A model generated the notes under the pieces. The model did no database searches. It was not told the origin of the DNA and saw only the letters and a list, made by a program, of their open reading frames with translations. A stretch of DNA of 64,000 nt from a virus, in IMG/VR virus record IMGVR_UViG_3300030101_001745, positions 37,547 to 101,546 of that record; one strand, 5' to 3'. The first letter of the stretch is position 1; each line of letters starts with the position of its first letter. Positions 14,477-49,460 of the stretch are shown piece after piece. Made by a program: the position numbers and the translations under genes.

Positions 14477-15172
14477 TTATATCTCCATTTTTGTTTCTTT
14501 GTTCAGAGTGTTTATTACTCTCTCTGCTAGAGTTTGGCCTACGCCTTCTATTTCGCACAATTCTGAAATTGTTGCTTCTCCTATTTCCATGATAGAACCA
14601 AATTTGTCTAACATGAGTTTAGCCTTATTCAGACTAATTCCTTTGATTGTAGTCAGAACATCCACCCTCAAATCGGTGGTGGTTATTCTCTTTACAATTC
14701 TAGGAGTGTATACTTCTCTGGTGATTGGTTGCATTTTACATACCGTACAAATCACCTCTGCGGCAGTCAATGAGTCCTTGACCCATACTACACTACAATC
14801 GGTATCTAGTATTATTCTGCCTAATGCACCATAGAACTTTTTCCAAGTCAAGGTGCGTAGGACTTTTGGATTGATATCAGACTTGACATGTGCAAGATGT
14901 TGTCTGAATGCTTTGTCAAATGAACCGTGTACTATCACAAGGTTATTGTCAAAGGCTCTATCCATGTTATCTAGTTGCTTCCACAGTCGCTTGTTCTGTA
15001 CTGACTGTAGGAAGTCGAAGGATGACTTCGCTTCAAAGCAGACGTTGTTGAAGGTATAGTCTCCAAACTCAATCCATTCTTTCTCAAAGGGTATGTTCAT
15101 CTTTCTTGCTTTCTCTTCCACTTGTTCCGTTAGAACAGAATTTTCCCTACTGTCAATAATGAGTTTGTTCAT
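14477..15172 (-). CDS. ERCC4/XPF-family structure-specific nuclease with HhH
   Basis: 'IIDSRE', 'GDY', 'EAKSSFDFLQS...RLWKQL'; C-terminal HhH 'IEGVGQTLA'. Confidence 0.85.
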   Translation of the reverse strand: MNKLIIDSRENSVLTEQVEEKARKMNIPFEKEWIEFGDYTFNNVCFEAKSSFDFLQSVQNKRLWKQLDNMDRAFDNNLVIVHGSFDKAFRQHLAHVKSDINPKVLRTLTWKKFYGALGRIILDTDCSVVWVKDSLTAAEVICTVCKMQPITREVYTPRIVKRITTTDLRVDVLTTIKGISLNKAKLMLDKFGSIMEIGEATISELCEIEGVGQTLAERVINTLNKETKMEI

Positions 15173-16939: not shown

Positions 16940-17854
16940 TCAAACTAACCATTCCCCCAAGGCACTTTGATTTCTATCTTTCTTAATTGCCTGTAAGTCC
17001 CATTCCATTGCATGATAGATTGGTGTGGCTTTCTTTAGAACCGACTCTGCATAATGTCTCCAATCTGGTTCATGCCATGACTCCGATAGTTCCTTCTCCG
17101 TTATGAAGGAGAAGTAGGATGGTCTTGTTGACCTACCAGAGAACGGATGTGTGTATGTGGCGGGAGAGTGTGGGTCAATCCTAAAGTACAGATATGAATC
17201 TGTAATAGGTGTATCCGATATAGTATCGTGATACAATACACCCTCTATCCCAGAACCGATGGTAGGTCGCTTTCCTTCTGATGTGACATAATCTGGTTTA
17301 TCACAACACTCTCTTCCCATCTGCTTTCTCTCCATCAACTCATGAAGGGTAAAGTTACTCTTCCAACCGTTCTTCCTACAGTTGTTACAGATTACCTTGA
17401 ACCTAGATTCTTTGTATCTCGTTCTTGTTAGAACATCGCTAACAGGAATCTTACCTTTTAATACTGCATTGTAAAGACCATGTAGGTAATCAGTTACCTC
17501 TTCTTCACTACATGCATTGACCCACATGTTCAAGACTTGTGTTTGTGTCTCCTTACCTAGTTTAGTGATAGACTGTCTCTTGGCAGTAAAACCAGTCATT
17601 GAGAACTCGTCTTCTTCAAGGAACTCCCCATCTTTCCAAGTAATCAACCCTGCGTTCCTGTTCTTTGTCACACCTACACCTAGAGTTTTGAAATACTTCT
17701 CAAACTCTAACTGTACAGGATGCTCATCCAAACCTAGAATGTTTGGAAACAACTTCTGTACTTCCTTGTTTATATGCTCTACTGCTTCCTTACCTTTCTC
17801 AACAGATTCACAATCTACATAGATGGAATCCGTGTGTCCATAAACTACCTTCAT
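16940..17854 (-). CDS. polB: Family B DNA polymerase, C-terminal subunit (motif C, thumb)
   Basis: Starts 'MKVVYGHTDSIYV'; 'LEFEKYF', 'KNRNAG', 'GFTAKR'; CxxC...CC Zn insertion. Confidence 0.9.
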   Translation of the reverse strand: MKVVYGHTDSIYVDCESVEKGKEAVEHINKEVQKLFPNILGLDEHPVQLEFEKYFKTLGVGVTKNRNAGLITWKDGEFLEEDEFSMTGFTAKRQSITKLGKETQTQVLNMWVNACSEEEVTDYLHGLYNAVLKGKIPVSDVLTRTRYKESRFKVICNNCRKNGWKSNFTLHELMERKQMGRECCDKPDYVTSEGKRPTIGSGIEGVLYHDTISDTPITDSYLYFRIDPHSPATYTHPFSGRSTRPSYFSFITEKELSESWHEPDWRHYAESVLKKATPIYHAMEWDLQAIKKDRNQSALGEWLV

Positions 17855-18317: not shown

Positions 18318-19997
18318 TCATTCGTATCGCCTCGCTTGGTAGGCCGCTTCTCTAATTGCTTCTCTAGCACTAGCAGTAATTGCCTCTGCTAATTCGATAT
18401 CACACCAACCGTATCCTTGGAATCCAACAATCCCATAGAACGAAGCCATTAATCTCTTGACCGCTAGTTGGTTGTTGTTCCACATAACGTACTCGGATTT
18501 GTCAGATGCATTTTTCATATTCACCTTGTACTCATTCCTCAACTTCTTCAATCCCAAAAGAGAACGTGGCAGAAGTCCTAAGTCATCCGTCTTGAAGTAT
18601 CTCATATTCGTGTGAGTTGATTCACTGAAATCCTTGGGAGTGCTGATATTTACTGCAAACTCAGTTGGTACTCTCGATTTTGTCTCCCACGAAATGTTTC
18701 TTGCAATCATCATGCTCGGATACAGACCCGCGAAGTCAAATGCGGCTACACCGAAATGTAGCCCATTTGTGCCTTCACTAAGCGGGTCATATACCATCGC
18801 CCCATCATATGACCTAGACTCTCCTTTCTTGCCTGTAGGAGCCTTCCAAGAAGCATTACGCATGAAGTAAATTCCTGCCATCTTAGTCGCATGATGACAT
18901 GCATCATACGGTGCTTTCAGAAGTCTCTGTAGAGATAGTATTGCTTCCGTGATGTGATTGGTAGTATCTAGTTCAACTAGCAATTCTACGTCTATCCTAG
19001 CATACTCCAGATAGACATCTGAATCCTCCAACCAAGCCCTAGCAAAGAATTCGTTCTTGTCTGGAAACCTATTACTCACTAGTTTCTTCTTTCCAAGAAC
19101 GGTTTCACCTATGTAGTCAAGTGCCATTGAAGGCAATGTTCCTCTCTGAGAATCCAACCATTGTCTTTCAAACGCCGCATCTAGAGCAACACATATCCTA
19201 CCCTTGATTGGTTGGTATGTAGGTGAGTAACTGTTCACCTTTCTCTTATCCATAGCGACTTGCTTTGTCTTCTTATCCCAATACACTCCACTAACTTCAT
19301 CACAAGGAGAAAGCAGTTGAGCATCTAACTTGTTATGGATGAGCCTCTCAATCAACTTAGGCAGGTCGAACTTCCAACCGAACCAAGAGATAAGCATGTC
19401 TGGGTCATGGAAGATGATATCGCTAAGGAAAGCCTGTAGCATCTTCTTCTCAGAAGAATAAAACTTCGCACCTTGTCCTAGCCCATCTGTGTCTCTACCA
19501 TCTGGATACCAAACATATGTCTTGTACCAATTGTCATAACTGTCGTATGTAGCAATACAAGTAATCGCGCCGTCATGTTCTCCACCTTGCATCCATTCCA
19601 TATCCCAATACAACTTTCTCATTTCATACTCTGGAAAGAAATCCGGGTTCTCTATAGCATACCTGTGATGATGTGCAACATCTCCTTCGTATGTGTCAAT
19701 ATTGTTTCTGTCAAACCAGTTTCTCATCAACTTAGCATAGTGTGGTTTTGGTGGTGACCAAGAAACTTGCTTTAGTCTATCACCGTCAAGATTGACGAAA
19801 TCAGTCTTCTCGTATGATGGCTTCAATGTGAAACTACCATAGGCATCTCTACCCTTGCACTCATTCATCTCAACCTCACTATCCTTGATGTAGAACCTAG
19901 GCTTGAATTCATCGAAGGATACTTCCTTCGTCTGAACCTTCTTGTATTCATCTCTCCATCTAAGCAGTATTCCCTTTGTCGTAGTATCAATAATCAT
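18318..19997 (-). CDS. polB: Family B DNA polymerase, N-terminal subunit (exonuclease, motifs A and B)
   Basis: ExoI 'WDMEW', ExoII 'FDLP', ExoIII 'YARID', motif A 'FDFAGLYPS', motif B 'KRLMASFYG'; ends just before motif C. Confidence 0.9.
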   Translation of the reverse strand: MIIDTTTKGILLRWRDEYKKVQTKEVSFDEFKPRFYIKDSEVEMNECKGRDAYGSFTLKPSYEKTDFVNLDGDRLKQVSWSPPKPHYAKLMRNWFDRNNIDTYEGDVAHHHRYAIENPDFFPEYEMRKLYWDMEWMQGGEHDGAITCIATYDSYDNWYKTYVWYPDGRDTDGLGQGAKFYSSEKKMLQAFLSDIIFHDPDMLISWFGWKFDLPKLIERLIHNKLDAQLLSPCDEVSGVYWDKKTKQVAMDKRKVNSYSPTYQPIKGRICVALDAAFERQWLDSQRGTLPSMALDYIGETVLGKKKLVSNRFPDKNEFFARAWLEDSDVYLEYARIDVELLVELDTTNHITEAILSLQRLLKAPYDACHHATKMAGIYFMRNASWKAPTGKKGESRSYDGAMVYDPLSEGTNGLHFGVAAFDFAGLYPSMMIARNISWETKSRVPTEFAVNISTPKDFSESTHTNMRYFKTDDLGLLPRSLLGLKKLRNEYKVNMKNASDKSEYVMWNNNQLAVKRLMASFYGIVGFQGYGWCDIELAEAITASAREAIREAAYQARRYE

Positions 19998-20888: not shown

Positions 20889-21176
20889 CTATTCTTCCCC
20901 ATGATTCATCGCCTCATATCTTGCAAGTCGTTGCTCTAACTCAAACTTACCAAACTCTATCACAGACCGTAGAGATGTCTCAAACTTCTCATCTCCGAAC
21001 AGGCTTGCCATTCTGTAGGGTATCACTATCAAACAGTCACATGCATCACAACATCTACCATCAGCAACAGGTTGAGCATTGTTTCCATGTGTCCAATACA
21101 CCTTACCATTGTGGCTTCTGTGTTCTATGTCTTTCTTACAAAGAACACATTGTATAACTTCCTCACTCATACCCAT
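20889..21176 (-). CDS. Small Zn-binding protein
   Basis: 'CVLC...GNNAQPVADGRCCDAC'. Confidence 0.6.
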   Translation of the reverse strand: MGMSEEVIQCVLCKKDIEHRSHNGKVYWTHGNNAQPVADGRCCDACDCLIVIPYRMASLFGDEKFETSLRSVIEFGKFELEQRLARYEAMNHGEE

Positions 21177-22033
21177 CCCGCCATACTAGCAGTAGGACAT
21201 ATGCTGAAATAACTGCAACTAGCACAAGACCTTTCGTTGTACTTACCTTCAAAGGCATTATTCTCGTAAGCATGTACCAAGTTGGCGATGCCTTTCAACA
21301 TAGCACTCTCACTAATCTTCTTCACCTTCTCCACTTGGATATGGTTTGCTACGGGAAAGTACCAACCCCAATGGGTCATCTCATATTGTGGGTCTATGCC
21401 CTTTTCTCTAAGGTGAGCATCAGTTGATTCATCAAATAGCAACTTGTAGAATGCCATTTCCTTTCTCATACCTGTAGCCTTATGTTTGCCCCATGCACCT
21501 GTTTTCAACTCCATGGGAATGTAACCACCTTCACTGAAATACAACCTGTCGATTATACCTTGCAGGTGAACCAGATAGTTTCTCTTTAACTCAACATGGT
21601 CAAAGGCACTAGCCCTAACTAGAAACTCAGCATCCAACATTACTTCATTTAAGACTGGTAGGAAATCCTCAGTTTCTCCTTCATCCTTAGCATCCATCAA
21701 ACGATTAGCATCGAAACATGCCATCGAATAGTAGACATCTGTGTAGTCATCTATTGGATAGAGACTGTAGTTGTATGCTATCAATTCCTCTAGTGTCTCC
21801 ATACTCTCTGCCTTCTTCAAGTCGTAGACGTTGAAGTAATCCTCTCTGGCATTGTGTATGATAGTCCCTTTGGTCATAGCCTCAGTAGTATCCTGTGGTA
21901 GTCTCTCTCGATAGTTGAAGTGATATTTCTGTGGACACCAGTTGTATGAGCCTTGCGAAGATTTTGTTATCTTCAATATAGGCCCATCTGGATACTCATC
22001 TACCTTCCAATCATATGTGAATTCTCTCATCAT
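21167..22033 (-). CDS. Cas4/RecB-like PD-(D/E)xK exonuclease
   Basis: N-terminal 'CP', 'GTIIH', 'GIIDRL...ELKTG', C-terminal CxxCxYxxxC Fe-S motif. Confidence 0.85.
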   Translation of the reverse strand: MMREFTYDWKVDEYPDGPILKITKSSQGSYNWCPQKYHFNYRERLPQDTTEAMTKGTIIHNAREDYFNVYDLKKAESMETLEELIAYNYSLYPIDDYTDVYYSMACFDANRLMDAKDEGETEDFLPVLNEVMLDAEFLVRASAFDHVELKRNYLVHLQGIIDRLYFSEGGYIPMELKTGAWGKHKATGMRKEMAFYKLLFDESTDAHLREKGIDPQYEMTHWGWYFPVANHIQVEKVKKISESAMLKGIANLVHAYENNAFEGKYNERSCASCSYFSICPTASMAGWV

Positions 22034-32874: not shown

Positions 32875-33455
32875 ACATTCAGCACCACCTTGTCAACAAC
32901 ATCATCGTGGTCATTGAACCACTTCTGAATCCATTGTGCGGCATAACCTGCAATCAGCATGTGCATACAGTTTACTTCCTTACCAGTACCATCCCAATCT
33001 CCGCCTTGGCAGGAGAAAGAACCCTCTGGTCCGTTCAACAGTGTATCTTGGAAGTTCTTATCCACCTTGTAAGAAATCAAAGCCGCATTGCGACCTTGCG
33101 CTCTCAAATCAAGCCACTTGACTTTAGCATCATCACCGTGGCCTTGACGATATAGCATTCTTCTTACTGCTAGATTATCAGCACAACAGATAACCAAGTC
33201 GTATCCCTGCAACTGCTTCTCTGTTAGAACAAGATATGGTTGTGCTTCATACATACCACCCATATCAGAAGAGAAGCAATAGACCTTGAGTTCCCCTAGG
33301 TCATCTGCGCTAAAGTTCTGATACCGCAGATTCTTCTGCTCAACCTTATCATTGTCAAAGGCAGTAACCTGATACACACCAAGTCTGTTCAGTATTGGAA
33401 TTAGATAACTACCTATTCCACCTGCCCCAATCAATAGCACCTTACGATGCCTCAT
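32871..33455 (-). CDS. ThiF/MoeB/E1-like ubiquitin-activating enzyme
   Basis: 'LLIGAGGIGS', 'DNDKVEQKNLRYQ', 'CADNLAVR', candidate catalytic Cys in 'SFSCQ'. Confidence 0.9.
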   Translation of the reverse strand: MRHRKVLLIGAGGIGSYLIPILNRLGVYQVTAFDNDKVEQKNLRYQNFSADDLGELKVYCFSSDMGGMYEAQPYLVLTEKQLQGYDLVICCADNLAVRRMLYRQGHGDDAKVKWLDLRAQGRNAALISYKVDKNFQDTLLNGPEGSFSCQGGDWDGTGKEVNCMHMLIAGYAAQWIQKWFNDHDDVVDKVVLNV

Positions 33456-34416
33456 TCAGAAGCACCTCGTTCTTGTTTCTTTCATTGTTTTTCTTTCCAT
33501 TTTCATTTTCATTCCTCACTCTTATTCCTTTAACTACGTCTTCTATGTCATAACAAGATAAACTTGCTCTGTCTATTGACAATAATTCGCACATTTCCTT
33601 AGCATTATTCCTAATGCCGTAATCAGAACATAGCCAATACTTCACTATGTCTGTTTGTGTAATTGGTTCTCCTATCATTTTAGTAGCAATCCAAACACCT
33701 GCTCCTATTCTATTATTAGATAGTCGCATATTTAGGTCTTCATAGACCCTAGAAACATATTCTATGAACAAAAAAGCCGCATTTCTCTGCGATTCTGTTA
33801 CTTTTTTCATGTTTCCAAGTAAAGAATCTACTGATTCTTGTGGTGTTTCTTTAGCAAACACATATGACTTTCTTGCATATTTTGCTATTTTCTTAGCAAT
33901 TTTAGAGAGATATCTCTTGTCCACTCTAGTAATCCTAGCATGTTTGTCTAGACTAGTTATGATACCTGCTTCTTTCAATACAAAGAAAGTCACACCTGCC
34001 GCTTTACGTTCGTTTGAGTATCCTCTGAGATAGTCGTCTTTGAACATAGCCAGATAATACGCCTTCGCGCTTTCCTTCAAATCCTTAGACGCACCATACT
34101 CAGATAGATACATCATCATCTTGGTATCAACTTCTTTCGTTGCGGCTTTTCTTTTGTGTGTCGCCCAAGTCTCTGTTCTTACATTCTGTTGCCAAAGGTG
34201 AAACTTCTTGTTTACAAACGCCTCACTCTTAGTAATGAAAGAACCTAGATGTCCTTTGTCTGGACTCTTGTTGGGTTGACCACTATCATCCCACTTGACA
34301 AGAACGTGCTTCTCAAAGGGAGCAGTCACGTTGACATACCCACACTCTGAGCATACGTTCTCGCCAAGTGCTTCGTTGAATACTAGGTTGCGAGACTTAC
34401 ACAGTTCGCACTTCAT
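33442..34416 (-). CDS. tfb: Transcription factor B (TFIIB) homologue
   Basis: N-terminal 'CELC...GENVCSECGYV' Zn ribbon; two cyclin repeats ('LRGYSNERKAA', 'ITQTDI...GIRN'). Confidence 0.8.
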   Translation of the reverse strand: MKCELCKSRNLVFNEALGENVCSECGYVNVTAPFEKHVLVKWDDSGQPNKSPDKGHLGSFITKSEAFVNKKFHLWQQNVRTETWATHKRKAATKEVDTKMMMYLSEYGASKDLKESAKAYYLAMFKDDYLRGYSNERKAAGVTFFVLKEAGIITSLDKHARITRVDKRYLSKIAKKIAKYARKSYVFAKETPQESVDSLLGNMKKVTESQRNAAFLFIEYVSRVYEDLNMRLSNNRIGAGVWIATKMIGEPITQTDIVKYWLCSDYGIRNNAKEMCELLSIDRASLSCYDIEDVVKGIRVRNENENGKKNNERNKNEVLLNEAS

Positions 34417-36381: not shown

Positions 36382-38270
36382 AGTATCTCACACGTTCCCC
36401 CAGAACATGCGAGTTCACCTTGAAGTTGAGTGTTGTCGTCATCCTCCATTATCTGTGAGGTGTCTAACTTCTTTAGTAGTGGTAGGTATTTCTCAAAAGT
36501 CTCTTTGTTACATGCCGTGTTAGGCATCTGCATTTCTATACCATCCTCAACATCGAAACTGAAAGGTAGTAGAGAAAGTCCATTGTAGGAATCTCTGTTT
36601 ATCCACATCCAATCTCTCACCAAATCCCATTCATTCTCACGAACGTTAACTGTTGCTGAAACGTTGTGAGTATTCATTCCGTCTATGTGACCGGGCTTCA
36701 CCCAATTCTCTGTCACATGCTTCACTCTCTCTAAGAAGTCTATAGCAGACTCCGAGCGAGTGACTGCACCTTCTGGTGCTTTTTGAGGAACGAAGACTAC
36801 TATGTTGCCTTCTTCCCATCTATCGTCTTCTATCAAATCTGGAATGTTCTCCATTAGATACTTGGCAATAGGTTCCTCTTTGTTATATCTGATAGTCCTA
36901 ATGAAGTAGTCAGACCACCAAGGGTGAATCCCCGATGATGTTCCGAATACCAGACTAGCAGTTCCTTCTGGTTTAACACAGGTAAGTCTAGCGGCAGGAT
37001 TGATGCCTAGTTTCTCTGCCCAATCCCTGTTCACCATCTTGACGACATCGACTGCTTCATTCAAGTCTAAGTCATCCAACTTACCATTGGCGATACCAGT
37101 CATAGATACACCAAGTAGTGCATCCTTCTCAGTAGTCTTCTTCCATCCTTGACGTAGGAAGTGGAAGTCTGTGTAGGTCGCTTGCAATGTTCCTAGGAAC
37201 GCCGCCGCTTCTACTCTAGCATTCAATTCCTCTTGTGATTCTACGTCTGATACGTTACAGGTAGTCAAGTTACAGAACTGCATGTCCCGTAATCCAATTT
37301 CTGCACAAGGATTGGTTCCCCATTCCTTATCGTTAGTGAAGTAGAAACCCGGCTCATGTCCACCATTTGCCTGTATTATCTCCCACAAGGAATCGTAGAA
37401 TTTCTTGGTTACTCTGTTCCTAACTAGAACCGCAGAGTTGTTAGCATGTTTCCTATATGGGTGACTCTCGTATGTAGTCACCGTCTTCGCAGTCAACATC
37501 TCTCTGTCGTCTGCACTAAATAGTGAAATCATCGCTGACCTTCTGATACCACCAGATAGTACGGCCTCTGCTATTCTACATAGCATGTCATGTACTTCTA
37601 TTGGTCTGAGTTGTGTGAAATTCTCCTTGTCAATCAACATACCTTCTATGATAGTGAGGCAGTTTCTCAATGGTGTTGGGCCGGGAGCCTTGCCACCACT
37701 AGTCTTGAGTAACGCTCCCTTCGGTCTGATATCTGAGTAGTCGAAGCGCGGTGTAGTGCTTCTCTTACCAGTATAAGACTCAAAGAGTACGTTGATTGCT
37801 TCTGCCCATCCTTCTTGTGAATCACCTATCAGATGTCTGTAGGTTCTATCTGGGTTAGGCTTCATGACTTGTGGTAGTTGTGCTATGTGATGCTTCTGCA
37901 CCGAATAGCCTACACCAGTCCCACCTAGTAGTAGAAACATTGCTTCCCCGAAGCACCTAATATCTGTAATGTTCATGAATGAACAGTTGTAGATTCTGTT
38001 AGGTGAACGTAGAATAGCATCTCCTGCAAATTGGTAGGAACGCATAGAAGGTGATACCTTCAACGTCTTCACATAGTCATTGTATACCTTTACAATCTTG
38101 GTGCAGACAGTTTCGTTCCCTTTGAATTTGTCAAGGTGCATGTTCATGTTCCTTGTGATTATTTCATCGAGTGTCTCTCTCCTTCCCAACTCCCAATCAT
38201 ACCTAGCATATTTCGTAGGTACAATCAAATCGCTCATCATTTGTTGTTCTATTTCTAATTTATTTTGCAT
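36378..38270 (-). CDS. nrdJ: Class II (adenosylcobalamin-dependent) ribonucleotide reductase
   Basis: 'YNCSF', 'GTGVG', 'GGIRRSA', 'TNPCAEI', 'CNL', 'TCVKPEGT', C-terminal 'ACSGGTCEI'; no beta-subunit gene. Confidence 0.92.
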   Translation of the reverse strand: MQNKLEIEQQMMSDLIVPTKYARYDWELGRRETLDEIITRNMNMHLDKFKGNETVCTKIVKVYNDYVKTLKVSPSMRSYQFAGDAILRSPNRIYNCSFMNITDIRCFGEAMFLLLGGTGVGYSVQKHHIAQLPQVMKPNPDRTYRHLIGDSQEGWAEAINVLFESYTGKRSTTPRFDYSDIRPKGALLKTSGGKAPGPTPLRNCLTIIEGMLIDKENFTQLRPIEVHDMLCRIAEAVLSGGIRRSAMISLFSADDREMLTAKTVTTYESHPYRKHANNSAVLVRNRVTKKFYDSLWEIIQANGGHEPGFYFTNDKEWGTNPCAEIGLRDMQFCNLTTCNVSDVESQEELNARVEAAAFLGTLQATYTDFHFLRQGWKKTTEKDALLGVSMTGIANGKLDDLDLNEAVDVVKMVNRDWAEKLGINPAARLTCVKPEGTASLVFGTSSGIHPWWSDYFIRTIRYNKEEPIAKYLMENIPDLIEDDRWEEGNIVVFVPQKAPEGAVTRSESAIDFLERVKHVTENWVKPGHIDGMNTHNVSATVNVRENEWDLVRDWMWINRDSYNGLSLLPFSFDVEDGIEMQMPNTACNKETFEKYLPLLKKLDTSQIMEDDDNTQLQGELACSGGTCEIL

Positions 38271-41890: not shown

Positions 41891-43328
41891 CCACGTAGTT
41901 GAGAGTCTTCATTGCTCTAGTGATGGCAACATAACACAGATTGGTTTCCTGTTGCCTATCAGCAGGAGTAGTTGCCATAGGATGTGGCATGAGTTGTGGT
42001 TCCAGAATCCATACGTTTTCTGCTTCAAGACCCTTGGCCTTGTGGATAGTGGAGAAGACAACTCCTGCTTTCTTTCCTTGCTCACCGAATATCTCCTTGA
42101 TGTTATCTAGAAGACCACCGACTGTGTTCACATTTCCAGCAAGAGCCAGAATGCAATCGTACTTATCAGTCAAGGACTGAATCTGCTTGTCCTTCTCCTG
42201 TAGTTTCAGAGCATTGATTCTCTTGTCAACATGGTCTGCCAGTGCAGGTAAGAATCTCTCAAGAGTCATTGACGAATCATCTGTCACCTTCTTGACTAGA
42301 ACCTGTAGTGAATAGCCGATGTCTCTACCTAGAACGTAAGCAGGTATGCCTTGGGTAATTAGAGAAAAGCACTCTGAAACCAGAGGCGCGTTTACTCTGC
42401 ATAGAACCAAGTCGCCACCCTTTGGCACGAATGCCGCATTGACATTCACCTCACCTTCTGGTGCATCTTCCCTGCATGTGTAATCTGAGAAGAATCGGTT
42501 GGCTTCTGCTACGATAGACTTTGGACATCTCCATGTGATACTAAGAGTGTAGTCCTTGACTCCGCGAGTAGACTTGTTCACTAGTTCCTCTCTGAATATA
42601 TCTATACTAGCAGAGTCTGCTCCACGGAAACCATAGATTGCTTGCTTGGTATCTCCAACAACTATCATCCTACCACCATTACATGCGCGTAGTATTAGTT
42701 GCCTTTGTGACTCATTGAAGTCCTGTGCCTCATCAACGAAGACAGTATCATAGTGTTCTACTGGTAGTTCTAGAACTACAGGTAGCCATATCATGTCATC
42801 GAAATCCACTACAGAGATATCTTCACACATGTTCCTTATTGTTGGAAGCATGTCGATTGCCATCTTCTCATCCTTGATGCCATCGAACTCAATGTTATAC
42901 TGGTCGATGATTGCTTTGATATCTGAGATGGATTGCCAATCTGCTAGTGAAGACTTCAACAGGCTGATTAGTTTGTTTAGAGCAGGTGCTGATTTGTATT
43001 CAGGACCGAAGATGTTCCGAATGATGTTGTAGACTTTCTTGGTGTCCACCTTTGCATCTTTCCTGAACCTCTTGATAGAAGACAACCCAAGACTGTGAAA
43101 GGTCATAGCCTTACAATCAAGTGGTAGTTTCTTACCAAGTTCAGTCGCAATTGATTTGTTGAATGCCAAGAATCCTTTCTTGCCACCACGAATCCTCTTC
43201 GCGCCTTCTACGATAGTGAACGTTTTACCCGTTCCTGCACCAGCCTTAACGACCATGTGACTATCGCCATTCTCCATTTCATTCCATATTTCTTCTTGTT
43301 CTTTTGTTCCTACTATTGTCATTTTCAT
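41874..43328 (-). CDS. uvrD: UvrD/Rep superfamily 1 helicase
   Basis: 'AGAGTGKT', 'LAFN', 'TFHSLG', 'VDEAQD', 'VGDxxQAIYGFRGA', 'STIHKAKGLE', 'YVAITRA'. Confidence 0.93.
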   Translation of the reverse strand: MKMTIVGTKEQEEIWNEMENGDSHMVVKAGAGTGKTFTIVEGAKRIRGGKKGFLAFNKSIATELGKKLPLDCKAMTFHSLGLSSIKRFRKDAKVDTKKVYNIIRNIFGPEYKSAPALNKLISLLKSSLADWQSISDIKAIIDQYNIEFDGIKDEKMAIDMLPTIRNMCEDISVVDFDDMIWLPVVLELPVEHYDTVFVDEAQDFNESQRQLILRACNGGRMIVVGDTKQAIYGFRGADSASIDIFREELVNKSTRGVKDYTLSITWRCPKSIVAEANRFFSDYTCREDAPEGEVNVNAAFVPKGGDLVLCRVNAPLVSECFSLITQGIPAYVLGRDIGYSLQVLVKKVTDDSSMTLERFLPALADHVDKRINALKLQEKDKQIQSLTDKYDCILALAGNVNTVGGLLDNIKEIFGEQGKKAGVVFSTIHKAKGLEAENVWILEPQLMPHPMATTPADRQQETNLCYVAITRAMKTLNYVGDRVG

Positions 43329-44748
43329 TTCTCCTTTGGAGTGTAATATTGTAGCGAGGGGCAGAGTCATCAAGCATGCCTGACTAGTGCTTCGTATGTA
43401 CCCTAGCCTGACATATGCCGCAAGACTATACGATTACTTTGTGTAGGAATCTCTACACACAAATAGCCCTGAGAGCGTACCGTTACGATAATCGGTAACA
43501 TGAAGTCGAGTGACAGTTAATGTATCTAAAAATCACCCATTATAACAAAATTTTACTCAAATTCCCTTTCTCTTCTGACTCTGGCATCCTTCGTTCATAA
43601 CTTATCTCAGAAGATATTCTCTGCATTACTGCTAAACCTCGCTCTAACTTGGAAGTGTCGCACATTTCCCAATATGTTCTCTACTCGCGTACCTCGCGTA
43701 TGAACAGAGTTCTGCATCCAAGCGTTAACCCATAAAGCGGCATAATAGGCATACAAATCCCTGAATATACCTATTGAAAAATGCTTTAGGGTTTGAGTGT
43801 AAAAGATTCGTTGTTTGTTACTGCATACAAACTCGCTCTTGCGAGTAAAACAACAGGTACGAACACCCACGAAAGTCCACTTGGAATACAAGATTCAAAC
43901 TTGTTTCAACCATGTGGTGCAATCATGTTAAAGGTGGCCCAATTCAACATCGCCCTTGTATGTCTGACATTCAGTATAGGACTGAATATAATCACTAGCC
44001 CCCGTAGTAAAAGTAGGTGTAGAACGGAGAGGTTCTCTAGGGGGAGAACCCGCTGGTAAACAAGAACACGACAGTAGAAAAGTGTTTTTCTCCGTATTAC
44101 CTAGCAAACTACGTCCTACTAATCGGGGGTAGGAGTATGATAATCATTTCGATTATTTTGAGATGGTGGGAGGATATCGCGGCAATGTGGATATCCCCCC
44201 GTCTTGGGTAAAGCCCCAAGAAAAGGTGTGAGTGGTTATGGGGAGAGAACAAGAACGTGCTATGCCGTTGCTACGCAGGGAAATTGGGCTTCTTAACTAA
44301 CGGGCTTGTTAAGCGATTTGTTTTATGACGCTGACGACTACTGTTGGATTTCTCCTTTATAGCGCACAGTTGGCAGAGAAGCCATCTCTACCAAGCCAGT
44401 TACTACACCCGTTCAGAGCCACGGCTAAGTGGTCATAGGAAAGAGTGGAGTCAACCCCTGTATCTTTACTTGTTTCATCCGAAGATGTTCCGTAGAACTC
44501 CCCGTTTCGACCCTTGTGATTTACTCACAATGTCCCACTACTTCATTCATGGGACAAACATGGTATTACCCATATGACAAAGACACCGTTTACTAAGTCG
44601 CTAAACTGTTCAACGATGCCTCATGTCACCTTTCAATCAACCGTCAAGGTTTGGTGTATCGAATCTAATGTATCGAATTTATAATTATCAGATAATTATC
44701 GGTTGTGATAATCCTGAATCGTGCGTATTCGATGGGAACGCACCACTT

Positions 44749-44927
<179 letters not shown>

Positions 44928-45267
44928 TAATACGAAAACCAACTAATATTGAGTATTGTAGTATAGATACTTCTACTGTATATATTGTATTAGTATTATA
45001 CTATATGTAAGTCCTAGATAGACCTTGTGTGAACCTATTCTTTTTTGTTAGTTGAAAAATCTAACAGGTAGGTTTCGACTTTGATATATTGCTCTGGTTA
45101 GGTGAGCGCATTCGATGTCGGTTTCCCTAGGTCATCGGACAATTCCCTCTTGGCCCCCTCGGTATATATACTCCGGCCCATATCCCGGTAATCCGATTCT
45201 ATCTAGAAATCTGCCATACAACCATATGGTTAGGCACTTTGTCGCCTCGACCTGACTATCTAGGGGT

Positions 45268-45299
45268 GGGAGAGCAGGTGAATTAACACCTGCCCCCCC
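45268..45299 (-). terminator. GC-rich hairpin after the cassette-1 gene
   Basis: GCAGGTG-AATTAA-CACCTGC extended by G/C runs. Confidence 0.55.
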
Positions 45300-45334
45300 G
45301 AAGGAGTGTTCAGAAGGGTTCCGAACGTTCACAA

Positions 45335-45805
45335 TCAGAGAGAACCTCCGATTGTTGCCAGAAGACTCTTCTCAGAGCCGTCCCATTCATCGGCCTTGTA
45401 CATTGCTTCGGCCGCCTCCTGTATTTTCTCACTGTGATAGGTGGCCCAATGCTCACCATTCTCAAAGTGGTCGAACTTGCACTTTCCGTGTGGAATCCAT
45501 AGTGCGCGTACAGTTGAAGATGAGTCAAATGCTTGACCCATTGCTACAACAGCCGCGATTGCTAGGTCTACAACAGCCTGTGCCGCCGCAGGAAGAGAGA
45601 AACCTCTACTGTTGACCGGGCTATCTGGGTAATCTCTTACCGTTTCCCTTACAGCAGTAGCGATTCGGCTCTGCCTATCTGGGTTGTCCGTTCCCTTCGC
45701 TATCTGTCTCTTCACATACTCAGCATCGACTTCATCCATCGTGCCTAGGTTTGCAAAGTCATTCATCGTTTTACTAAATTCTGTCCAATTATCCATTGCC
45801 GTCAT
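45335..45805 (-). CDS. Putative early protein (paralogue of 46356-46955)
   Basis: Start at MTAMDNW after AGGTGA SD. Confidence 0.65.
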   Translation of the reverse strand: MTAMDNWTEFSKTMNDFANLGTMDEVDAEYVKRQIAKGTDNPDRQSRIATAVRETVRDYPDSPVNSRGFSLPAAAQAVVDLAIAAVVAMGQAFDSSSTVRALWIPHGKCKFDHFENGEHWATYHSEKIQEAAEAMYKADEWDGSEKSLLATIGGSL

Positions 45806-45956
45806 TTTATTCACCTTTTCTTTGTTGTGGGGTTCTTTACCCTCTGAACAATTGCTCTTGGCCCTTCGGATACATAAGGCGAGTCGAGCAAAGTGACTAC
45901 CATATGGTTGCACACTTTGAACTGTACCCTATGTACCCAGATGGTCACAGGATACT

Positions 45957-46217
45957 ATGTCATTAGTGATATACGAAGTATGCAAGAAAGAGCCAAAACA
46001 GAGGACGCATTATGGAATAGAGGTCTTCCTGAACCATGAAGCAGCAAAGAAGCATCTCAGAGAACTGAATGCTATATCGAACAACAGATTATTCAGACAA
46101 TATCATAAATTGTCTGGGACTGGTCGAAACAGCAAGGATTATTTTGAGGCCCAGAGAATCCAGCATAAAATTACCGAAGGAACATGGCAAATCATAGAGA
46201 GGATAGTGGAAACCTAG
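45957..46217 (+). CDS. Putative early hypothetical protein
   Basis: ATG 58 nt after a palindrome core; followed by a hairpin. Confidence 0.6.
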   Translation: MSLVIYEVCKKEPKQRTHYGIEVFLNHEAAKKHLRELNAISNNRLFRQYHKLSGTGRNSKDYFEAQRIQHKITEGTWQIIERIVET

Positions 46218-46227
46218 CCTCGCATAC

Positions 46228-46258
46228 TGAGGGGGGGAGTACCTCCATCCCCCCCTCA
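46228..46258 (+). terminator. GC-rich hairpin
   Basis: TGAGGGGGGGA / TCCCCCCCTCA 11-bp stem. Confidence 0.6.
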
Positions 46259-46355
46259 CCAAATCGAGGTAGTTTACCAAACAAAGTATGTACAAACCAT
46301 ATGGTTGTTACTTTTGTTCATTACCCTATATACCCATGTCGGTATTAGGTGATAC

Positions 46356-46955
46356 ATGGCAATAAGCGATGAAGAATGGAAAGAAACAAGAACGAAAGTG
46401 GAAGAGTGGGAGAAAGAACACCCAGACCTTGACAAAGAGCAGAAATCAGAGTTGAAGGTAGTACACAAGTGGTTAGACAAGGGTGACAAGATGTCAACAA
46501 GGCGAGGTAGGCTGAGTACATCAATCAAGGAGGTCTTTGAAGACCTTCCAGACTCACCCTTCATCACTGTGAAGATACCAGACGGCCTAACTGCCGAGAT
46601 GATAGCGAGCCGAGAGGCCATTATCACCGATATCAAGGCAGAGAGAACCCGGTCTTGGGAGAATAATGTCTCAGTGAGGATTGTTGAGACTGCTTCTGGC
46701 CGTTCCGATGGTGGATGGTTCATTAGTGGCTCAGAATTCTCTCAGAGGGATGAAACGGCAATCAGAAACGCTCTGAATGCTCAGTTTAGGGGCCACAATG
46801 CAGAACCAAGAACCGGAGATGCATATGGTCGCTGTTGGGACGGCACTTACGAGCCAGAGAGCGAGGATTGGTCTTGGACAGTCTCCTTCACCCAGATTCC
46901 GAAGGCCGACAGGCCCGAGAAACCTAAGAAGAAGGCCAAGAAGTCTTCTAACTAG
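46356..46955 (+). CDS. Putative early protein (paralogue of 45335-45805)
   Basis: AGGTGA SD; ATG 60 nt after a palindrome core. Confidence 0.7.
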   Translation: MAISDEEWKETRTKVEEWEKEHPDLDKEQKSELKVVHKWLDKGDKMSTRRGRLSTSIKEVFEDLPDSPFITVKIPDGLTAEMIASREAIITDIKAERTRSWENNVSVRIVETASGRSDGGWFISGSEFSQRDETAIRNALNAQFRGHNAEPRTGDAYGRCWDGTYEPESEDWSWTVSFTQIPKADRPEKPKKKAKKSSN

Positions 46956-46989
46956 GCAAATCGACTACCGAGGAACCACGTAACCCCAG

Positions 46990-47018
46990 AGGGGGGGTCA
47001 GAACACCGACCTCCCCCT
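46990..47018 (+). terminator. GC-rich hairpin
   Basis: AGGGGGGGTC / GACCTCCCCCT. Confidence 0.55.
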
Positions 47019-47123
47019 TGTGGGCCAACTTGAGGAATTTTCCGATAACAAAGTAATTACAAACCATATGGTAGTAGCACTTTGCTCGCTAATTACCTTA
47101 ACCCCGAAAGGCCACAGGGAACC

Positions 47124-47390
47124 ATGGCACAATTCAGAGGCACAATACAAGGTAATAGAGGCGAAGCGTCAAGACTCGGAGACAAATCAAGCGGTTTAGT
47201 AATGACTAGCAACGGTTGGGAGTCTGGAATCAAGATTAGAGCATACTATGACGCAGAATCAAACAAAGACTGGTTCATACTATGGTCAACTGGTGGTTCT
47301 AACGCACGAACAAGTAATAGGCTACTTGGTGTCTTCACATTAGATAAAGACGGTCAACATTCCTTTCAACTGGAGGGGGTGGAGAGATGA
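47124..47390 (+). CDS. Putative early hypothetical protein
   Basis: MAQFRGTIQG start 61 nt after a palindrome core. Confidence 0.6.
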   Translation: MAQFRGTIQGNRGEASRLGDKSSGLVMTSNGWESGIKIRAYYDAESNKDWFILWSTGGSNARTSNRLLGVFTLDKDGQHSFQLEGVER

Positions 47391-47578
47391 ACACCGGACA
47401 AGTAGATTTGAAACAGTATCAATATGAAATAGATGTCGGGCATTCTAAGTCCGGCTCTAACCATGTAGTAGTATTGAAGTCGCTCAAGGTAAGAAGTGAC
47501 GACTTGAATACTGCACTACAAGAAATATACGCGGCTCTTCGCAGTTTCAACGATTCTGTTGAAGAGTTCCACAAATAA
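47387..47578 (+). CDS. Hypothetical protein
   Basis: ATGA-coupled, GGAG SD. Confidence 0.55.
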   Translation: MNTGQVDLKQYQYEIDVGHSKSGSNHVVVLKSLKVRSDDLNTALQEIYAALRSFNDSVEEFHK

Positions 47579-47995
47579 CACTCCTATAGGACTGAAAGAA
47601 GGATAAGTTTCCACACCCAAGATGAATATGCATGTATGACACATGGGTAGCAACGCGAAACTCCGTAGCCATCGCTAACAACCAACATAACCTAGGCAAT
47701 TTGTTGGGTTGAGAGAAGCATTCGATAGTAAGACTAAGGTACGCGAAAAGCGTGATTCCGAAATTCCTGCTTACAACATTCTAGGTGAACCTCTACCTTC
47801 TGGATGTCCTATAGATACAACTCCTAGTCGGGGGTTGGAGATTGCTGTCCTTGAACATTGAATTAACTCGCAAATTCAGCAATTAAACTCCTTCCCCCGA
47901 CAAACTTCAGGTGCTTGTCCTGACCAAAGTGTACAATACCATATGGTAGTAACTTTGTCAACTTACCTTATCATCTCACCTCGCCAGATACAGAC

Positions 47996-48250
47996 ATGAA
48001 CAAAACTAGGAGAACTAATCTAGAAATAATCTGTGATGAAATAGAGATTGCTAAGAGTGACATCCGAATGATGATGGATAGTATAATCGAGCATAGGATA
48101 AAGACAGGTACAACACGAAACCCGTTGCCTAACGATTACTACATTCACTGTGGATGGATTGAGAGTCTTATCTGGATGGAAACTAAGATGGAAGACTTAG
48201 AAGAGAGGATAGGAAACGGTTGGCAGTTCTCAAAGGGAGGTCAACCCTGA
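47996..48250 (+). CDS. Putative early hypothetical protein
   Basis: ATG 58 nt after a palindrome core. Confidence 0.6.
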   Translation: MNKTRRTNLEIICDEIEIAKSDIRMMMDSIIEHRIKTGTTRNPLPNDYYIHCGWIESLIWMETKMEDLEERIGNGWQFSKGGQP

Positions 48251-48423
48251 TGCCTGAGTATGTAGTGACAAAAACTGTGACAGAAGAGCATGTTTTCATC
48301 ATTGATGCTAGTGATGAGTTAGCCGCAGAGATAGAAGCACTAAATCATGACAAGTATTACTGTAATGCAACTAGTGCTAGTTATACCGATGTGAGCATAA
48401 CTGATGTAAAGGAGTTGTGCTGA
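48250..48423 (+). CDS. Small acidic hypothetical protein
   Basis: TGATG coupling, GGAGG SD, MPEYVVT start. Confidence 0.55.
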   Translation: MPEYVVTKTVTEEHVFIIDASDELAAEIEALNHDKYYCNATSASYTDVSITDVKELC

Positions 48424-48758
48424 TGGCTTACAATCCTAATTTTGACTATGCAGAAGATAAACCTACCATCAAAGGCAGAAATACCAACACTTGGTCTAAT
48501 AGACACAAGGAAGTAATTGAAGGTAAGGCAGGAGACAGCATCAGTAGAAAACAAGGACAAAGAGCCTACTGGTTTAGGTATGGTGCTTGGAGAGAGCAGT
48601 TTGAAAATAACAAAGGTAAAGTCCAAGAGGGCAAGATTAACCTTTGGTTTGCTCAGAGGCTCGCATCACAGTATCCTCACTGGCCCATTTCAGAGAAGCA
48701 CCAAGTATTACTGGACAGGGAAGCAGAGAGACTCGCAAAGGAGGCGGAGGGAAGATAG
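48417..48758 (+). CDS. Hypothetical protein
   Basis: Coupled to the upstream gene; followed by a hairpin at 48740-48777. Confidence 0.55.
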   Translation: MLMAYNPNFDYAEDKPTIKGRNTNTWSNRHKEVIEGKAGDSISRKQGQRAYWFRYGAWREQFENNKGKVQEGKINLWFAQRLASQYPHWPISEKHQVLLDREAERLAKEAEGR

Positions 48759-48903
48759 GTAATCTTCTCTCCCCTCCCATCAGGTATGATTATCCTAACA
48801 AAGTATTCTACAACCATATGGCTTTGCAGTTCAAATTTTTTTCTCAGGTAGATAACAAACAGGGGGCCAAGGTTAATCTAATTGGTAACTTTCGGGCCTA
48901 CCA

Positions 48904-49146
48904 ATGGTATCTAACTCATCTTGGTTTAACATTATCAAGCAAAATGATGAAGCGGGTAAAAGAGGTAGCGATAAAAAACGGGCTACCCATACAAAAGAAC
49001 AAACTACCTTGCCCCAAGAACTCCTAGATACTGCGTTATCGGAAGAACAGGTAAAAGAGATAAAGAGGCGCAATCCAAAGGTAGTTCCCGCGAAGGGAGT
49101 AGAAGAAGGAGGTAACTTGAAGCAAACTAAACTAGGTGATTATTAA
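48904..49146 (+). CDS. Small protein with W-motif (putative virion protein)
   Basis: 'SSWFNIIK'. Confidence 0.55.
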   Translation: MVSNSSWFNIIKQNDEAGKRGSDKKRATHTKEQTTLPQELLDTALSEEQVKEIKRRNPKVVPAKGVEEGGNLKQTKLGDY

Positions 49147-49277
49147 TTTCTACCTAGAAGGTGAACCTTATCTTGGGAATGGAGCAAGGTAGGAAGGTAA
49201 AATTTCGCTAGTGGCACAAAAATTACGGCCCAATTTTTGAGAATCTTTGTTTGCTCTACCAACTAACAGGTGATAAG

Positions 49278-49460
49278 ATGTCAAAAGTACCCTCAAAGAC
49301 AAGAATGAATAACGAGGCATGGTTTGACATACTCAGAATGGCGGGTGCTGTCACAAGCACCTCTTCTGGAACAAGTGCATTATTCAATAACAAAACGGGG
49401 GGCTACTCAATTGCGAACAAGAAAAAGAAGCGCAGGAAACGGCGAGATAAGGAAGGCTGA
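49278..49460 (+). CDS. Small basic protein with W-motif
   Basis: AGGTGA SD; 'AWFDILRM'; Lys/Arg tail. Confidence 0.55.
   Translation: MSKVPSKTRMNNEAWFDILRMAGAVTSTSSGTSALFNNKTGGYSIANKKKKRRKRRDKEG

Follow-up and report, generated by a model that had tools for sequence, protein, structure and literature searches.

A palindromic element joining small gene units in a magrovirus genome, with a predicted archaeal promoter and signs of unit exchange among relatives

Described cassette systems and the array in the window

The PeSL (promoter-early stem-loop) cassettes of T4-type phages are ORFan genes separated by an early promoter and a polyG/polyC stem-loop, and the genes are shuffled when these modules recombine with one another (Arbiol et al. 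2010, PMC2839356). Here we describe an array of small genes with a related layout, located in a 64,000-nucleotide stretch (“the window”) that corresponds to positions 37,547 to 101,546 of IMG/VR record IMGVR_UViG_3300030101_001745. The record is rated complete at 101,546 bp, and the window is its final 64 kb; coordinates given below are those of the window. A first-pass annotation of the window had proposed that six intergenic copies of a palindromic core delimit five units. These were recovered as five exact ACCATATGGT cores, starting at 45221, 45899, 46296, 47063 and 47938, and one ACCATATGGC core starting at 48813. At a joint, the hairpin of the upstream unit is followed by a spacer of 36–44 nucleotides (nt), a CAAAG arm, ACCATATGGT, a CTTTG arm and a box with the sequence ACC(C/T)TA(T/A). 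The unit plan given in that annotation (site, box, small open reading frames (ORFs), GC-rich hairpin, next site) recurs in all five units. For comparison, related loci were gathered using the motif itself, by scanning IMG/VR for CAAAGT followed by a 3–9 nt gap and ACCATATGGT; at least 120 stretches matched, and all counts for related loci refer to this set.

PeSL is the closest working analogue of the array. Both have small ORFans in a hyperplastic region between conserved modules, with a promoter module (here predicted) and a G/C-tract stem-loop, and in both, recombination between modules gives insertions, deletions and replacements between relatives. In the magrovirus clade such recombination is seen on comparing locus L055 with L076 and L130 with L131, and as an enrichment of breakpoints, but not against a relative that is 95% identical. 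The sigma-70 −35/−10 promoter of PeSL is missing from the sites; in its place stands a predicted archaeal promoter of the B recognition element (BRE)/TATA type that would yield leaderless mRNAs. The invariant 10-bp perfect palindrome with its CAAAG/CTTTG arms has no PeSL counterpart. Conservation here extends across a clade, down to 47% helicase identity, whereas PeSL cassettes are found among near-identical phages. Inversions occur here; mini-circles are a trait of PeSL, and the present array is known from its sequence alone. Because the host is archaeal and a −35 hexamer is missing, the resemblance to PeSL is one of analogy, not of membership.

Within archaeal viruses the closest analogue is a set of anti-defence motifs in which closely similar upstream sequence (a strong BRE/TATA with virus-specific flanks) precedes unrelated small early anti-defence genes; some of these viruses have inverted repeats that are proposed to bind a repressor (Nat Commun 2024, PMC11065993). 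Sites 2–5 of the array likewise have core, arms and box in common before unrelated ORFs. The published motifs belong to Sulfolobales viruses, with A/T-rich TTTAWATA promoters and a purine-rich BRE, and their inverted repeats overlap the BRE, whereas the palindrome here lies upstream of the box. The regulator described there is Aca8, and the passages of PMC11065993 consulted describe no role of the motifs as recombination joints. In the tailed archaeal virus HF2, a halovirus, class I and class II intergenic repeats carry promoters and keep their positions within the genus (Russ, Pfeiffer, Dyall-Smith 2021, PMC8707807). These are likewise conserved, promoter-bearing intergenic repeats, but they are A/T-rich motifs of 58 and 29 bp spread genome-wide and do not form one cassette array; neither a palindrome nor cassette shuffling is mentioned in the abstract of PMC8707807.

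Like integrons, the array has small cassettes in a row, a repeated palindromic site, and gain, loss and reordering by whole units. In integrons the attC sites are long imperfect inverted repeats (R''/L''...L'/R') of variable length, whereas the site here is a short perfect palindrome. An integrase is absent, each cassette appears to be self-promoted, and cassettes are invertible. None of three integron hallmarks (IntI beside the array, attC sites, and promoterless cassettes under a common Pc) was found. The array is therefore not an integron, since a recombinase is absent and the cassettes carry promoters of their own, as judged from the box. The first of two readings offered by the first-pass annotation, integron-like site-specific recombination, is set aside on these grounds and because the perfect 10-bp palindrome is not an attC site.

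A predicted archaeal promoter beside a virus-specific palindrome

The genome is that of a magrovirus, a tailed virus infecting Marine Group II archaea. Magroviruses rank among the most abundant archaeal viruses of the surface ocean and are uncultured; to our knowledge, nothing is known of their transcription control and gene turnover. PolB is encoded by two minus-strand ORFs (18318–19997 and 16940–17854) with small ORFs between them, and the break falls inside the catalytic domain. A split PolB and a genome of ~100 kb are described for group B magroviruses (PMC5434244), and the present genome agrees with this group in being a tailed-virus genome of ~100 kb, in its archaeal-type replication set and in the break within the catalytic domain of PolB. 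The minus-strand arm also codes for RFC, a PD-(D/E)XK nuclease and an ATP-dependent ligase, and the plus-strand arm codes for terminase and portal. The array occupies the strand-switch region, flanked by replication genes on the minus strand and late genes on the plus strand. A 324-amino-acid (aa) homologue of TFB (TFIIB) is encoded at 33442–34416 on the minus strand and is conserved in five related loci (family F8). Its N-terminus matches the TFIIB zinc ribbon at the Pfam cut-off (29 bits), and its cyclin-repeat core resembles Pyrococcus TFB (PDB 1AIS/1D3U, E 1.6e-5). A search of the text of the 2017 magrovirus paper (PMC5434244) for TFB, TFIIB and “transcription factor” found none of these terms. 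Split PolB, RFC, ATP-dependent ligase and TFB homologue together identify the host machinery as archaeal. Two ORFs of 3473 and 2461 aa had prompted us to consider a crAss-like or N4-like phage that encodes a virion RNA polymerase; this was rejected because a DFDxD motif was not found, the terminase is only distantly related to those of Bacteroides phages, and the replication set is archaeal. A nucleotide search against GenBank phages gave zero matches.

With an archaeal host, the element that had been called a TATA-like box becomes a candidate for a literal TATA/BRE. At sites 2–5 the distances from box start to ATG are 31, 33, 29 and 31 nt, respectively, which puts the centre of the box ~25–26 nt upstream of the ATG. 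An archaeal TATA box typically lies ~26 nt upstream of the transcription start, with the BRE directly upstream of it. The position of the box agrees with this core-promoter geometry for a leaderless mRNA, the start site being predicted. We therefore read the box as most plausibly an archaeal core promoter of the BRE/TATA type, and the distance of 29–33 nt implies that units 2–5 would be expressed as leaderless mRNAs. Measured from the start of the core, the ATG of these four units is 58, 60, 61 and 58 nt away, in agreement with the 58–61 nt of the first-pass annotation; unit 1 differs in having a leader. No other ORF of the whole genome shows the 29–33 nt box-to-ATG geometry. The remainder of the genome is tightly packed, and no upstream motif common to its genes was found. 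Among related loci, the distance from the box start to the first ATG (of an ORF of at least 30 codons) peaks at 29–34 nt, a range that takes in 60 of 222 half-sites with arm and box; the remaining half-sites have longer leaders or no ORF.

Sigma-70 −35/−10 promoters and Bacteroidetes −33/−7 TAnnTTTG promoters were considered and rejected because their spacings do not fit, and no conserved −35 hexamer was seen at the sites at 16–17 bp. The viral TFB homologue could be the reader of the ACC element beside the TATA; the palindrome is left unexplained by a monomeric TFB. The boxes ACCCTAT and ACCTTAT resemble the left half of the core, ACCATAT.

Allowing one mismatch, the core matches the window 10 times, compared with 2.15 ± 1.46 times in shuffled sequences (maximum 6; none of 100 shuffles reached 10). 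Elsewhere in the 101,546-bp genome there are only two more copies of CCATATGG, both armless. Many of the related stretches contain 3–14 clustered cores on contigs of ~90–100 kb. After removal of duplicates, at least 402 distinct CCATATGG sites were counted, with arrays in at least about 60 related contigs; among the sites listed, 164 have two arms, 162 have one arm and 76 are bare. The core is invariant, in part by design of the search, arms and box form conserved blocks, and the spacers vary. The element is kept across the virus clade down to the 47% helicase identity given above. Loci L050, L064, L075 and L119 contain dense bare cores of the form TA-CCATATGG-TA, lacking arms and box, every 100–150 bp in ORF-less stretches; such runs are absent from the window.

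The two-armed pattern (20 specified bases) was also searched in 185,579 prokaryote species genomes, where it occurs at 36 loci compared with ~27 expected by chance. All but one of these loci are single matches in unrelated bacteria, and none is titled Poseidoniales. The sole prokaryote array is on NZ_NZTP01000027.1 (L163), a 14.7-kb contig of an “Altibacter sp.” marine metagenome-assembled genome (MAG), with five two-armed sites and the array-end variant described below; this contig is most likely a magrovirus fragment mis-binned into a flavobacterial MAG. The element is virus-specific. Because the full pattern is at chance level in prokaryotes, a reader of the full site would serve no host set of sites of the same form. 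Three magrovirus papers (PMC5434244, PMC11706807 and PMC10160649) were searched by term: promoters are unmentioned, and so are palindromes and intergenic repeats where these were searched. A full-text literature search for CCATATGG returned only unrelated papers among the matches listed. The palindrome-jointed element is apparently undescribed.

Exchange of units among relatives and its possible explanations

The closest relative, locus L132, has a helicase that is 98% identical and an array that is ~95% identical, with the same six sites and the same unit order. Site modules are 93–99% identical between the two and ORFs 90–93%. The sole structural difference is the loss of the ORF u5b (48253–48419) inside unit 5, at a CTGATG microhomology with overlapping stop and start codons that lies between two start codons; genes are thus also gained and lost within units, independently of the palindrome. 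At greater distance, loci L130 and L131, whose helicase is 76% identical, share one set of units in two orders, A / D,C / X / B / E and A / B / D,C / X / E, respectively. The first unit always codes for a protein of family F2; L130 and L131 have it on the plus strand, and the window, L132 and L134 have it on the minus strand. Followed along the minus strand, unit 1 is complete, with half-core, arm, box, leader, ORF, hairpin, a 38 nt spacer, arm and half-core in order. This anatomy fits the remnant expected of an inversion by exchange within two cores, and it agrees with the view of the first-pass annotation that half-sites are joined within the core (CAT/ATG), the flipped unit 1 included.

Within arrays of all related loci, 23% of internal homology ends fall at most 20 bp from a core centre, compared with 7% of random positions. 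Right ends of homology lie 5–20 bp past the core centre and left ends 5–20 bp before it. These amount to 25 distinct junctions; nearly all have a partner end that lies equally far from one of the partner's own cores. Loci L055 and L076 differ by precisely one 550-bp unit plus one core. The left flank of one core in L055 resembles the left flank of one L076 core (36/50), the right flank of that L055 core resembles that of the next L076 core, and the 550-bp unit between the two L076 cores opens with arm and box. In L130 and L131 the left halves of the sites track the upstream unit fairly well, and the right spacer-arm strings show no such link to the downstream unit; this tracking by the left half only suggests gene conversion or homology-driven exchange, and not clean cut-and-paste. 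Exchange at or within the core is thus supported for the clade by these sequence comparisons, at what appears to be a low rate. The first-pass annotation had also reckoned with a fixed unit order among relatives and an absence of breakpoints at the site; the order varies. Its expectation of gain, loss and inversion at the site is borne out by the L055/L076 indel, the reordering between L130 and L131, and the two orientations of the F2 unit.

We read the array, with a probability of roughly 0.6, as a set of co-regulated promoter and operator modules that double as recombination hotspots in the manner of PeSL. The region would then comprise five autonomous transcription units. The palindrome would most likely be the operator through which a putative dimeric, sequence-specific DNA-binding protein turns all units on or off in concert, and the units may, by analogy, form an early accessory or anti-defence gene set. 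Because the same 10-bp core and arms recur at every joint and in both orientations, the core would also be the place at which units are exchanged, and exchange, inversion, gain and loss of units at the core might take place during co-infection or replication. This corresponds to the second reading of the first-pass annotation, in which shared promoters of early type also drive shuffling; the box distance, the stronger conservation of site modules than of ORFs, and the site-bounded rearrangements speak for it.

Several points weigh against the PeSL-like reading. Promoter activity and expression timing are predicted from geometry and by analogy, and the recombination mechanism is likewise inferred, as are the presence and the nature of a binding protein. 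No DNA-binding candidate for the palindrome emerged from Pfam or from the structure models of families F2 and F3. The distances from core to arm (0 or 4–11 nt) and from arm to box (mostly 4–10 nt) vary, which is unusual for a rigid activator-promoter pair. An identity of 10 bp is little for homologous recombination of the ordinary kind, and a dedicated nuclease or recombinase would also account for breakpoints right at the core edge. Site-mediated change is absent between the window and L132, its closest relative. Since the related loci were collected by the motif, the copy statistics carry an ascertainment bias. In addition, covariation of spacers and complementarity of flanks around CTTTG hint at a DNA or RNA structure over a plain duplex operator.

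The breakpoints lend themselves to another explanation, in which an unrecognised nuclease or recombinase of virus or host cuts ACCATATGGT and rejoins the half-sites, the link to promoters being secondary. In both partners, homology blocks of 89–96% identity stop right at a boundary of the 10-bp core, the L055/L076 difference is one unit and one core exactly, inversions such as that of unit 1 retain complete half-sites, and the core is invariant while arms and spacers drift. The 76 bare cores, free of arms and boxes and spaced 100–150 bp apart in ORF-less arrays, would also suit such an enzyme, and the genome encodes a short nuclease of the XPF/ERCC4 type that has a tandem HhH domain (14477–15172, minus strand) and a PD-(D/E)XK nuclease (21167–22033, minus strand); as candidate structure-specific nucleases, both could act on hairpins or on intermediates of recombination. 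Against this, no enzyme candidate was found beside the arrays, and the absence of a recombinase noted by the first-pass annotation for the window extends to the complete genome. A search for tyrosine recombinases (PF00589) found nothing at E ≤ 0.1 in the complete 101.5-kb genome, while controls matched; resolvase (PF00239), Y1 transposase (PF01797) and Rad51/RadA likewise gave zero matches in the complete genome. The identical unit order in the 95%-identical relative and the right spacer-arm strings that do not track the downstream unit, which look like gene conversion or homology-driven exchange, also argue against it, and we regard dedicated recombination as unlikely. It is similarly doubtful that magroviruses possess a true cassette-exchange system, that is, an integron-like platform of complete, self-promoted, invertible units; if they did, the bare-core arrays of relatives would represent empty or RNA-only cassettes. 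The breakpoints might instead be a by-product of conservation, the palindrome being an operator and promoter only and the sole conserved island between fast-evolving units. Site modules are indeed better conserved than ORFs, BLAST alignments stop where similarity stops, and the nearest relative has no site-linked change. Such an account has difficulty with the exact unit-plus-core indel of L055 and L076, each flank of which matches a different partner core, and with the variation in order and orientation of whole units as blocks; we consider it distinctly improbable.

Two further explanations concern functions other than transcription and exchange. The sites could be protein-binding repeats of a replication origin or a packaging signal, comparable to iterons or origin recognition boxes (ORBs): the cumulative GC skew has its minimum at 44–46 kb, a neighbouring non-coding region (43914–45190) with A/T-rich inverted repeats is 96.9% identical to L132, and CCA-N2-TGG resembles what we take to be the archaeal ORB dyad. 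Yet the sites stand at every unit boundary with a fixed promoter geometry and not around the A/T-rich stretch, a search of the complete genome for the Cdc6/Orc winged helix gave zero matches, and the skew minimum coincides with the switch in gene strand, which is itself a sufficient cause. This makes an origin or packaging role very improbable. The last candidate is an element that acts as RNA or single strand, whose arm-spacer hairpins with CTTTG in the loop would serve processing, termination or template switching. Among related loci, the lengths of the spacers on either side of CTTTG correlate (r 0.66), and the flanks are complementary beyond what composition predicts and fold at −4.1 kcal/mol, compared with −2.1 kcal/mol for swapped partners, so that many half-sites would be able to form a small hairpin with CTTTG in its loop. 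In the window, however, the stems around CTTTG have just 3–6 bp; a promoter at the box would place the element upstream of the predicted start, so that only read-through would transcribe it; and an Rfam search of 43300–49400 gave zero matches. We give this explanation little credence.

Sites, units and array end

Site 1 (45221–45241) is the array boundary and consists of a core (45221–45230) and a right arm, ACTTTG (45236–45241). For the flipped unit 1, which is read on the minus strand, this site is the downstream joint. The left arm is missing, as the first-pass annotation had noted, and the related arrays L130 and L131 likewise begin with a site that lacks its outer arm. Site 2 (45872–45932) is bidirectional: a leftward box CCTTATGT on the minus strand (45872–45879) and the left arm CAAAGT (45889–45894) lie on one side of the core (45899–45908), and the right arm ACTTTG (45914–45919) and a rightward box ACCCTAT (45926–45932) lie on the other. 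Site 3 (46282–46329) comprises a left arm (46282–46287), the core (46296–46305), a right arm of the form ACTTTTG (46310–46316) and the box ACCCTAT (46323–46329). In site 4 (47049–47101) the corresponding elements are at 47049–47054, 47063–47072, 47079–47084 and 47095–47101, the box reading ACCTTAA, and in site 5 (47925–47971) at 47925–47930, 47938–47947, 47952–47957 and 47965–47971, with the box ACCTTAT. The palindromic CAAAGT/ACTTTG arms of the first-pass annotation are therefore present, but their spacing to the core is variable, at 4–8 nt on the left and 4–6 nt on the right in the window.

Site 6 (48799–48842) has a left arm (48799–48804) and the core ACCATATGGC (48813–48822), and CTTTG (48822–48826) stands directly against the core (CCATATGGCTTTG), followed by the tract AAATTTTTTT (48833–48842). 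The first-pass annotation had taken this site to lack its right arm; it is instead a conserved array-end variant. The variant, ACAA-CCATATGG-CTTTG followed within 3–8 nt by AAATTTTT(T/A)TTT, has 23 distinct copies among the related loci listed, and in 22 of the 23 it is the final site of its array and faces the late operon. Oligo-T tracts are the common terminator signal in archaea, and the combination of AAA with a T-rich stretch is also similar to a BRE/TATA. On account of these two likenesses, the T-rich tract of site 6 may be either a terminator that insulates the late genes or an A/T-rich promoter of the late operon.

Unit 1 is inverted, as first annotated. Its ORF u1 (45335–45805, minus strand) codes for 156 aa and is a paralogue of u3 in family F2. 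Transcription would come from the left side of site 2, with a leader of 66 nt after the box and a GGTG Shine-Dalgarno sequence before the ATG. The G/C-tract hairpin at its 3' end (45268–45299, minus strand; −26.7 kcal/mol, z −3.65) lies 38 nt from the core of site 1. The other units are on the plus strand. Unit 2 has the ORFan u2 (45957–46217, 86 aa), whose ATG is 31 nt past the box start and whose only homologue is in the 95%-identical relative L132, and ends in a hairpin of the form G7...C7 (46228–46258; −26.9 kcal/mol, z −4.57). Unit 3 contains u3 (46356–46955, 199 aa, family F2), with its ATG 33 nt past the box start, and a hairpin at 46989–47019 (−26.4 kcal/mol, z −2.40).

The ORFs of unit 4 (47124–47578) begin with an ATG 29 nt past the box start. 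They are u4a (47124–47390, 88 aa), a member of the functionally unannotated PHROG phrog_5927, and u4b (47387–47578, 63 aa), a member of family F3 that is present in at least 12 related arrays. The 3' part of the unit (47579–47905) has no ORF and a predicted folding energy of −91.3 kcal/mol (z −3.37 compared with shuffles); it combines long-range pairing of 47584–47611 with 47787–47814 and a hairpin at 47827–47901 (−33 kcal/mol, z −6.47), and could be a structured RNA or a long 3' untranslated region. Unit 5 (47996–48758) carries u5a (84 aa), with its ATG 31 nt past the box start, u5b (57 aa, 48250–48423) and u5c (111 aa); its hairpin at 48740–48777 (−28 kcal/mol, z −3.67) overlaps the stop codon of u5c. 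A G/C-tract hairpin thus closes all five units (−26 to −33 kcal/mol, z −2.4 to −6.5), 36–44 nt before the next core.

Pfam found nothing in any cassette ORF, and among PHROGs only phrog_5927 was matched. The predicted structure of F2 (u1, u3) is all-alpha, with a predicted local distance difference test score (pLDDT) of 89, and that of F3 (u4b) is a beta-hairpin plus helix (pLDDT 81). Models of these two most widespread cassette families gave nothing at E ≤ 0.001 in a Foldseek search against the PDB. F2 and F3 have in common a short motif H-(G/S)-K-S-G-(G/S), which reads KHGKSGGG in F2 and GHSKSGS in F3 (alignments A2 and A3), and the C-termini of F2 proteins have W-D-G followed by an acidic tail. 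In the replication arm, a small ORF (a member of alignment A1) resembles the PC4 transcriptional coactivator/single-strand DNA-binding domain (PF02229, E 1.2e-4).

The 1.8 kb that separate the helicase gene from site 1 (43400–45220) are devoid of credible ORFs. This stretch contains a (GA)15 run (44791–44820) and A/T-rich inverted repeats, in which 44759–44779 pairs with 44834–44854 and 44749–44762 with 44914–44927. The conservation of 43914–45190 relative to L132 exceeds that of the ORFs. The stretch 43400–45220 coincides with the minimum of the GC skew and is therefore a candidate origin or non-coding RNA region.

New relative to PeSL-like cassettes are the invariant armed palindrome, the leaderless geometry, the inversions and the conservation across the whole clade. 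Palindrome, box and hairpin together make a clade-wide, easily searched signature that marks accessory genes of magroviruses, probably early or anti-defence genes. The signature also supplies the start codons of leaderless genes that gene callers misplace. If the palindrome is a true recombination site, the array would represent a cassette platform of a new kind. If it is an operator only, the PeSL principle, by which regulatory modules are also the points of shuffling, would have arisen independently in archaeal viruses.

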